DNA of 64,000 nt from Bacilli bacterium. GTDB taxonomy: Bacteria > Bacillota_I > Bacilli_A > RF39 > UBA660. This document shows positions 50,015 through 50,260 of the stretch, piece by piece. The position numbers and the translations under genes were made by a program. The stretch covers positions 24,822 through 88,821 of the forward strand of contig JBJEEA010000042.1 in NCBI GenBank assembly GCA_051872635.1, written 5' to 3'. The notes below the pieces were generated by a model. That model did no database searches and was not told where the DNA came from. It saw only the letters and a program-made list of their open reading frames with translations. Each line of letters begins with the position of its first letter. Position 1 is the stretch's first letter.

Positions 50015-50260
50015 TTATCCAACTAATGGATTAAAGAATAGCAATAAGAAACAAAATGCAAATAAAAACAATAAGAAGATAGCAAATATTATTAATATCG
50101 TCATAATGGAATGAACAACATCATTTTTAGTTTCAGGATTTCTACCAACGGCTTCGGCAACTCTTCCTCCTAAAAGGCCCACCCCAAGTCCTAGTCCTAA
50201 AAAGGCTAGTCCTACCATAATTCCTATTGCAACTGCAGTTGCAGATAAAATACTTTCCAT
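50015..50260 (-). CDS. F-type ATPase c-subunit-like proteolipid (81 aa) lacking the helix-2 carboxylate
   Basis: Helix 1 and loop [33 protein letters not shown] resemble AtpE (GxGxGxG ... RQPE). Helix 2 ([25 protein letters not shown]) contains no Asp or Glu. Confidence 0.7.

Follow-up and report, generated by a model that had tools for sequence, protein, structure and literature searches.

In a 64,000-nucleotide stretch of contig JBJEEA010000042.1 from a Bacilli bacterium (the whole of this stretch is hereafter called the window), a minus-strand gene cluster codes for relatives of the F1Fo-ATPase subunits, among them a c-subunit homologue whose ion-binding carboxylate is replaced by alanine. 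The carboxylate of the c-ring is a textbook invariant of rotary ATPases. We read the cluster, with a probability of about 0.6, as coding for a non-chemiosmotic, ATP-driven, membrane-anchored machine derived from F1Fo, in which an ion-blind c-ring would serve as rotor or as anchor. This interpretation is the most economical one because the carboxylate is lost, the alpha and beta subunits are intact, gamma and a b-delta-like stalk are present, and no subunit a was found among the cluster proteins and the open reading frames (ORFs) of related loci that were scanned. A non-chemiosmotic rotor or anchor had been put forward in an earlier note on this DNA, and the results reported below support that proposal as far as sequence and genomic context reach. 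The specific output of the machine is held with much lower confidence than this general reading.

The cluster is a run of overlapping or abutting genes, the core of which is translationally coupled. Their order is p244, c, the stalk candidate, alpha, beta, p87, M5, gamma, p289 and three secreted paralogs (Table 1). All subunits of the cluster score under the NCBIfam equivalog cut-offs.

The c-like ORF described in the earlier note is present, with letters identical to those quoted there. It begins with ATG, ends with TAA, and a GGAGG Shine-Dalgarno motif lies 9-13 nucleotides 5' of the start codon. The proposed homology of its product to c subunits was upheld: Pfam ATP-synt_C (PF00137) matched the protein with 33.3 bits (E 5.7e-08) and the gathering cut-off of 24 was passed. 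The protein remained under the cut-offs of all NCBIfam c equivalogs, the best of which was NF005363 (40.6 bits vs 71), with 15 others further below. When a family profile made of the window protein and 13 relatives was run against the PDB, the top match was Acetobacterium woodii c1 (4bem_J, E 1e-12), and further matches were A. woodii c2/3, chloroplast c and Ilyobacter tartaricus c. In helix 1, the motif GxGxGxG (G22/G24/G26/G28) and the loop R40-N41-P42 are present, and the alignment to solved c subunits spans both helices. Thus, the protein is a true c-subunit homologue.

In the HMMER alignments of this profile to solved c subunits, helix 2 is ungapped, and Ala60, which lies 17 residues past the loop residue Glu43, is aligned with the Glu that binds the ion in A. 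woodii c2/3, spinach c and I. tartaricus c. The earlier note had placed an alanine at this distance from the loop Glu and had described helix 2 as devoid of acidic residues, and both statements hold: no Asp or Glu is found at residues 51-76, nor at residues 8-33 in helix 1. Asp47, in the motif TKNDVVH, had been named as a residue that might occupy the ion site; it pairs with the loop-proximal Asp of canonical c subunits, away from that site, so the loss stands. Furthermore, Gln32, Ser66, Thr67 and Tyr70, which form the Na+ site of I. tartaricus, correspond to the hydrophobic residues V27, I61, F62 and F65 in an ungapped alignment.

The loss is common to the relatives of the protein. A search of 5.8 billion non-redundant proteins returned 991 relatives, of which the best 120 (71-95% identity) were examined. 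In 119 of these, position 60 is Ala, Ser or Thr, and helix 2 contains no acidic residue apart from Glu at position 68 in a single-contig variant. A scan of GTDB, with one genome per species, gave 443 genomes with a match, and the best 80 loci were read. In these loci all 80 c-like proteins lack the carboxylate, which bears out the loss in the orthologues that the earlier note had wished to see compared. The ORFs of the 80 loci were clustered, and 51 loci with complete flanks are referred to below as full loci.

Among 53 distinct c-like sequences, position 60 is Ala in 20, Thr in 19 and Ser in 14, and no acidic residue was found in either helix. Of the helix 1 glycines, G22 and G28 are kept in 100% of these sequences, G26 in 98% and G24 in 85%. 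The loop A35-E36..G39-R40-N41-P42-E43-T44-K45 is invariant save for T44 (50/53), and this cytoplasmic loop is the best-conserved part of the protein. In canonical enzymes, gamma and epsilon dock on this loop. The pairwise ratio of non-synonymous to synonymous substitution rates (dN/dS) of the c-like gene is 0.03-0.1 at dS values of 0.66-1.4. When 1.84 billion cluster representatives (50% identity) were scanned in full with HMMER, the top ~30 representatives were all without Glu or Asp at the ion position, and next came canonical c subunits, which keep Glu or Asp. Since the replacement by Ala, Ser or Thr is conserved and purifying selection is strong, the gene is neither a sequencing error nor a pseudogene in decay; the carboxylate-less c proteins are a distinct clade.

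The search of representatives also returned single polypeptides with 3-14 c-like hairpins (P0392, P0396, P0401, P0406, P0430 and P0443), the longest array being that of P0443, with 14 hairpins in 1139 amino acids. Many of the multi-hairpin c proteins have Glu in one hairpin only and Gln or Ala in the others.

The alpha-like protein of the window scored under every NCBIfam cut-off (best PRK13343, 409.7 vs 554). Its best PDB match was PS3 alpha (287 bits, aligned from residue 12), and the G1 protein of Mycoplasma mobile gave 246 bits. The P-loop GDKKTGKT and the Arg-finger motif SVSRLG occur in 63 of 63 members of the alpha family. The beta-like protein reached 458.6 bits on TIGR01039 atpD, just under the cut-off of 462.85; it was best matched in the PDB by Fusobacterium nucleatum beta (6q45_D, 385 bits), whereas M. 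mobile G1 beta gave 293 bits. Both proteins are therefore nearer to canonical F1 than to the G1-ATPase. All 72 members of the beta family have GGAGVGKT, GERxREG and the Walker B motif. Judged by these motifs, none of the alpha and beta copies examined has lost its catalytic residues. The gamma-like protein matched Pfam ATP-synt with 85.1 bits (cut-off 39.9) and stayed under the NCBIfam equivalog cut-offs. The small protein p87 directly follows beta in 46 of the 51 full loci. It gave no match to Pfam, NCBIfam or PDB profiles, and its alignment by hhalign to E. coli epsilon had a probability of 0.1.

No separate delta was found in the window cluster, and the candidate for the peripheral stalk had no sequence match in Pfam, NCBIfam or PDB. 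Its AlphaFold2 (AF2) model has a mean predicted local distance difference test (pLDDT) score of 77, with ~90 in the C-terminal domain. In the model, a long N-terminal helix (residues 2-68) comprises a transmembrane (TM) segment and ~45 cytoplasmic residues, and is followed by a disordered linker, a helical bundle (98-199) and a small sheet. When the model was compared by Foldseek with 350,542 PDB chains, nearly all of the top ~30 matches were delta or OSCP subunits. The best was E. coli delta (6oqr_W, E 0.011, probability 0.97), and the others included chloroplast delta, bovine, human and ovine OSCP, PS3 delta and the mycobacterial b-delta fusion (7njn_d and others). In addition, hhalign placed residues 224-249 of the stalk candidate on residues 142-167 of E. 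coli delta (E 0.07), and in this alignment the best-conserved motif of the stalk family, GIKI.Y.N..YDYS, falls on the C-terminal motif AGVIIRAGDMVIDGS of E. coli delta. From its predicted fold, the protein thus looks like a b-delta fusion. In canonical enzymes, the N-terminal segment of alpha binds delta, and the alpha-like protein keeps this segment, because its alignment to canonical alpha starts at about residue 12. The b-delta-like gene stops at TGA and the G+C content of the window is 27.8%; therefore, the standard bacterial genetic code is used.

The five-helix membrane protein M5 is present in 46 of the 51 full loci. It evolves fast, with 13-36% identity between lineages, and an alignment across 23 lineages contains no conserved charged residue in the helices, in particular no conserved Arg. 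Its AF2 model (pLDDT 79, predicted template modeling score 0.69) consists of one helix and a four-helix bundle; a Foldseek search with this model against the PDB returned nothing better than E 1.7, and no sequence match was found in Pfam, NCBIfam or PDB. On the grounds of the missing Arg, the empty profile searches and the lack of a Foldseek match below that E-value, M5 was rejected as a disguised subunit a. It may be a membrane partner of the stator, standing where subunit a would act beside the ring. In one Lachnospiraceae group, M5 and the single-pass protein #8 described below are fused into one protein of ~400 amino acids, which argues that the two proteins touch. An identical M5 is recorded in a metagenome-assembled genome (MAG) labelled "Bacilli bacterium", and the gene order is the same in independent assemblies. 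No match to ATP-synt_A or another subunit-a model was found among the proteins of the window cluster or the multi-helix ORFs scanned from the flanks of the loci. The other multi-helix ORFs in the flanks were rejected as subunit a, as they are ABC transporters, CDP-diglyceride synthase, DUF421 proteins and similar.

Table 1. Genes of the F1Fo-related cluster in the window, with the gene upstream of p244
Feature	Coordinates	Strand	Length (aa)	Basis or status
Membrane/secreted protein with Asn/Ser-rich run	51124..52389	-	421	system membership uncertain
p244, single-pass membrane protein, lineage-specific, immediately upstream of c	50273..51007	-	244	window-type loci (18 members)
c-subunit homologue without ion-binding carboxylate (Ala60)	50015..50260	-	81	Pfam ATP-synt_C, PDB profile alignments
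Stalk candidate, b-like N-terminal TM helix and delta/OSCP-like C-terminal domain	49254..50012	-	252	AF2 model, Foldseek
F1 alpha-like, N-terminal region kept, C-terminal domain shortened	47924..49270	-	448	Pfam ATP-synt_ab, 230 bits
F1 beta-like catalytic subunit	46588..47946	-	452	TIGR01039 atpD
p87, epsilon gene position, size of epsilon beta-sandwich domain	46332..46595	-	87	position only
M5, five-helix membrane protein	45824..46339	-	171	locus conservation
F1 gamma-like	45049..45843	-	264	Pfam ATP-synt (gamma)
p289, soluble, no predicted TM helix	44226..45095	-	289 (by ORF)	window-lineage-specific
Three secreted paralogs, TasA/SipW-type N-terminal signal	41953..44187	-	205, 252, 227	clustering

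Across the loci, the conserved core comprises c, a single-helix protein of 245-265 amino acids, alpha, gamma, beta, the ~87-residue protein and M5. The order c-b-alpha-gamma-beta-epsilon is kept in most lineages, and in that of the window gamma is shifted behind M5. A giant N-terminally anchored protein (#7, 1700-2350 amino acids) is encoded directly upstream of the core in 39 of the 51 full loci, usually accompanied by a single-pass protein of 450-700 amino acids (#9), and another single-pass protein (#8, ~240 amino acids) follows M5, also in 39/51. These partners occur in Lachnospiraceae, Erysipelotrichaceae and RF39-like Bacilli. For #7, #9, #8, #12 and #16, no significant Pfam or NCBIfam family was found, only short collagen-like repeats far under the cut-off. 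The window-type lineage, which consists of RF39-like MAGs labelled Tenericutes, Bacilli and Clostridium sp. CAG:302, instead has p244 and p289, together with between one and four proteins of TasA-type signal. Both sets of partners are found together in one locus, L062. The carriers include MAGs labelled "Mycoplasma sp. CAG:472", Erysipelotrichaceae, Roseburia and Mobilitalea, as well as Candidatus Merdisoma sp. HCP28S3_D10 and the cultured Hominiventricola filiformis (CLA-AA-H276).

The TasA-type paralogs stand in one to four tandem copies of ~205-270 amino acids after the cluster in window-type loci (also in L001, L007, L012 and L062). They share the N-terminal motif ..G(S/A)T(Y/F)AYFSA.. (..GSTYAYFSA.. 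in the window) and two conserved Cys, and have no Pfam or PDB match. The putative TasA label derives from this signal motif and from a weak score on NCBIfam cognate_SipW (13.3 bits vs a cut-off of 19). A signal-peptidase-like gene (TGSMEP/TGSMLP) lies 3' of the TasA-type genes in L060 and L062. The paralogs are likely the extracellular partners in the window lineage. The p289 protein, called at 276 amino acids in independent assemblies, follows gamma in 10 of the 51 full loci (clusters p289/#45), and has no Pfam or NCBIfam family match. When p244 was considered as a diverged #8, hhalign paired the N-terminal helix only, and this relationship was rejected.

Upstream of p244, in several window-type loci, lies the gene of the 421-residue protein, the C-terminus of which is weakly GDSL-hydrolase-like (Pfam Lipase_GDSL_2, 25.1 bits, under the cut-off of 32.9). 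Within this ORF, positions 51573-51937 hold an Asn/Ser/Gly-rich low-complexity run (NNSSNNNGNNSSGNNNNNNNN...) with spurious ORFs on both strands. In loci of the "Mycoplasma sp. CAG:472" type (L019-L032 and L047; for example L025:16281-16466), gamma is followed by a protein of 61-67 amino acids that starts with MNKKGQALVEYILIIALVSV. The N-terminus of the MNKKGQALVEYILIIALVSV protein is Flp-type or prepilin-like in appearance, and a weak NCBIfam prepilin match (E 0.03) is its only support. One Lachnospiraceae MAG (JAEEIH01, Tb.RUG.141) contains the whole cluster twice, on separate contigs (L038 and L075). In L004 (CP091726.1, a "complete" MAG chromosome), the cluster is present, with alpha, beta and several other genes fragmented; because the c gene there is intact and 98% identical, the fragments look like frameshift errors of long-read assembly rather than real decay.

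Elsewhere in the window, a 378-residue ORF at 57044-58180 (+), on the strand opposite to its neighbors, has a helix-turn-helix-like N-terminal region and may be an IS30-family transposase, which it resembles. Two adjacent ORFs at 58996-60788 (-) both have a DUF1016 N-terminal domain; in the second, this is joined by a YhcG PDDEXK nuclease domain, and the first has the look of a truncated duplicate. A scan for promoters and terminators gave counts equal to chance in DNA of 28% GC, the PADLOC models of defence systems gave no meaningful match, and an exact-sequence look-up of the window proteins returned nothing.

The cluster can be compared with two types of mycoplasma complexes. The Type 3 "F1-like X0" complex (MSC_0618/0619, MIB-MIP antibody cleavage) and the Type 2 G1-ATPase of M. 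mobile gliding likewise have F1 alpha, beta, gamma and an epsilon-like protein, encoded as an extra operon with non-channel membrane proteins, and both, like the gut Firmicutes family reported here, are genetically tied to large cell-surface proteins. These F1-like ATPases have been described as mycoplasma-specific, without equivalent in other bacteria (PMC3369863, PMC12994834), and are believed to draw on ATP hydrolysis for mechanical work across the membrane (PMC3369863, PMC11864180, PMC12994834). The working models put forward for Type 2 in gliding and for Type 3 in MIB-MIP are so far hypothetical as well (PMC11864180, PMC12994834). In mycoplasmas, the cluster of seven genes codes, among others, for a membrane protein with 12 helices, a small protein of the cytoplasm and a large protein that has a signal peptide and two helices at its C-terminus (PMC12994834, PMC11864180), and the alpha-like subunits have no N-terminal H1 helix or stalk-binding segment (PMC11864180, PMC12994834). 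Whereas Types 2 and 3 have neither c nor a membrane-anchored stalk, the gut family keeps c, the b-delta-like stalk and the alpha N-terminus, and has the five-helix protein; its hosts are gut Firmicutes with the standard genetic code instead of mycoplasmas. The cut-offs of the mycoplasma-type NCBIfam models (MSC_0619/MSC_0618 and MMOB1660/MMOB1670) were missed by alpha (310.5 vs 520 and 369.5 vs 600) and by beta (413.3 vs 570 and 364 vs 850). According to our best reading, the gut family is separate from mycoplasma Types 2 and 3: it works like them and is built more like the canonical enzyme. It has been hypothesized that mycoplasma GliD derived from a fusion of b and delta (PMC11864180); the putative membrane-anchored b-delta fusion of the gut family would match this hypothesis and is how an intermediate might look. 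No earlier account of the family was found in the literature searched, which left most subscription journals uncovered; only the mycoplasma papers surfaced.

Among canonical F1Fo enzymes, the closest are the Na+-type ones of A. woodii, I. tartaricus and F. nucleatum, and in most loci the order c-b(delta)-alpha-gamma-beta-epsilon is the same. The family has kept the GxGxGxG motif of the c hairpin, its R-(Q/N)-P loop and C-terminal NP(F/L)VG, the catalytic residues of alpha and beta, as well as gamma and a fold like that of delta. Unlike the canonical enzymes, it has no subunit a that we could find and no c carboxylate, b and delta are apparently fused, and extra five-helix and single-pass proteins are present. 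In A. woodii c1, a component of an F/V-hybrid rotor ring (PDB 4BEM), the second hairpin is also without carboxylate (Gln), which shows that a carboxylate-less F-type hairpin can sit in a ring. However, A. woodii c1 is a double hairpin with one Glu and shares its ring, a working Na+ ring beside subunit a, with c2/c3 subunits that bear Glu, whereas the c protein of the gut family is a single hairpin without any site and the sole c gene of its operon. The mycobacterial b-delta is likewise one polypeptide in which a membrane helix at the N-terminus and a helix of the stalk are joined to a domain of delta fold, but it is larger (~430-445 amino acids), belongs to an ion-coupled enzyme that also contains a second b subunit and subunit a, and has no detectable sequence similarity to the 252-residue stalk candidate. 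The N-ATPase models (TIGR03305/03322/03324) were missed by c (16.6 vs 130.85), beta (404.9 vs 752) and alpha (344.4 vs 750.5), and no N-ATPase subunit a, AtpQ or AtpR was matched in the Pfam and NCBIfam scans of the window cluster.

In the mechanism that we propose, alpha3beta3 would hydrolyze ATP and turn gamma with the attached c-ring, and the membrane-anchored b-delta stalk, beside M5, would hold alpha3beta3 still. Because there is no buried carboxylate, and no subunit a with its Arg, the ring would be free to turn in the lipid without moving ions, and the output would be mechanical, not chemiosmotic. The gene neighborhood suggests that torque or a conformational change could be passed to the cell-surface proteins of the cluster, the recipients being #7, #9 and #8 in most lineages, and p244 with the proteins of TasA-type signal in the window lineage. 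Tentatively, the system may be a rotary machine that spins its ion-blind c-ring against a stator of b-delta and the five-helix protein, in order to move or remodel giant surface proteins in adhesion, surface motility or filament handling, and may represent a free-living intermediate between canonical F1Fo and mycoplasma Types 2 and 3; this more specific picture is possible, and more doubtful than the general one.

Several points weigh against the reading as an ATP-driven machine with an ion-blind ring. Homology of p87 to epsilon was not found, and its assignment is one of gene position. The formation of a ring, its rotation and the contact with surface proteins are deduced from predicted proteins and their gene context. 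Subunit a could be encoded elsewhere in the genome, the scan having covered the cluster and the ORFs of the loci. The delta-like nature of the stalk is suggested by a fold search with a monomer model at modest E-values (0.01-0.1), though the list of matches is very consistent. The family picture comes from the best 80 of the 443 matching genomes. Finally, the extracellular partners vary by lineage, p244 is unrelated to #8, and no single shared output is evident.

Among other explanations, the complex could be a non-rotary ATPase in which a static c-ring anchors the head to the membrane and a push-pull conformational change is transmitted to membrane partners. A passive anchor and a rotor are inseparable by sequence, the surface partners do vary between lineages, and the Type 3 model invokes conformational transmission (PMC12994834). 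We nevertheless hold this to be rather unlikely, given that the parts of a rotor (gamma, the c loop) and of a stator (the b-delta stalk, the alpha N-terminus) are all conserved and would be superfluous for a static anchor. An ATPase for export or assembly of the adjacent surface or filament proteins, comparable to FliI/FliH/FliJ, with the c-ring and the five-helix protein as its platform, would agree with the secreted and surface proteins encoded nearby, including those of TasA-type signal, the signal-peptidase-like gene and the Flp-like pilin in one lineage; moreover, FliH resembles b plus delta. This is improbable, as the partners bear ordinary N-terminal signal or anchor sequences suited to the Sec pathway, the lumen of the c-ring is narrow and hydrophobic in known structures, and alpha and beta fit F1 models far better than FliI/SctN models (for beta, 458.6 bits on atpD against at most 233.6 on FliI/SctN, the cut-offs of which are at least 380).

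Two further proposals would keep the protein within ion translocation, and both seem very unlikely to us. In one, the carboxylate-less c would be a spacer that joins the ring of a canonical ATP synthase, the genes of which lie elsewhere, and alters its ion-to-ATP ratio, as the second hairpin does in A. woodii c1. It is in favor of such a role that A. woodii c1, with Gln at the ion site of that hairpin, is the best match among solved structures, and that c proteins with several hairpins and one Glu are numerous; but in 80 loci the c gene always comes with its own alpha, beta, gamma and stalk, never with subunit a or a Glu-bearing c, and a spacer would have no need of the whole operon. In the other, the complex would still be an ion-translocating ATPase or synthase, with an unconventional site and subunit a elsewhere, in line with the name "F-type H+-transporting ATPase subunit c" that public pipelines give to relatives and with a subunit-a scan limited to the cluster and the ORFs of the loci. 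Against this stand the 53 distinct sequences without an acidic helix residue, 20 of which have Ala60 and hence no ligand at all, and a five-helix protein without conserved Arg. That the operon is a decaying, functionless remnant of a duplicated atp operon is scarcely credible: the loss of a canonical residue and of subunit a is all that speaks for it, whereas dN/dS is 0.03-0.1, no copy has lost its catalytic motifs, several Firmicutes families, with 443 matching species genomes, share the gene order, and the arrangement recurs in independent assemblies.

A machine driven by ATP, with an ion-blind ring as rotor or anchor, thus remains the reading that we favor, and the finding extends beyond one odd ORF: it is a widespread, unannotated F1Fo-derived system in gut Firmicutes. 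A single-hairpin c that has lost its carboxylate family-wide, and is yet better conserved than its partner subunits, would imply that the ring has a selectable function other than ion transport. F1-like ATPases, held to be specific to mycoplasmas, would extend to hundreds of species, including lineages that are abundant in the human and animal gut (RF39-like Bacilli, Lachnospiraceae and Erysipelotrichaceae), and at least one cultured carrier, Hominiventricola filiformis CLA-AA-H276, makes experiments possible. The JGI pipeline labels the carboxylate-less members P0068, P0075 and P0112 "F-type H+-transporting ATPase subunit c". With such automatic annotation, metabolic reconstructions of gut bacteria with reduced genomes may wrongly credit them with a chemiosmotic ATP synthase. 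The family also offers a plausible intermediate for the passage from an energy-converting enzyme to a mechanical motor.

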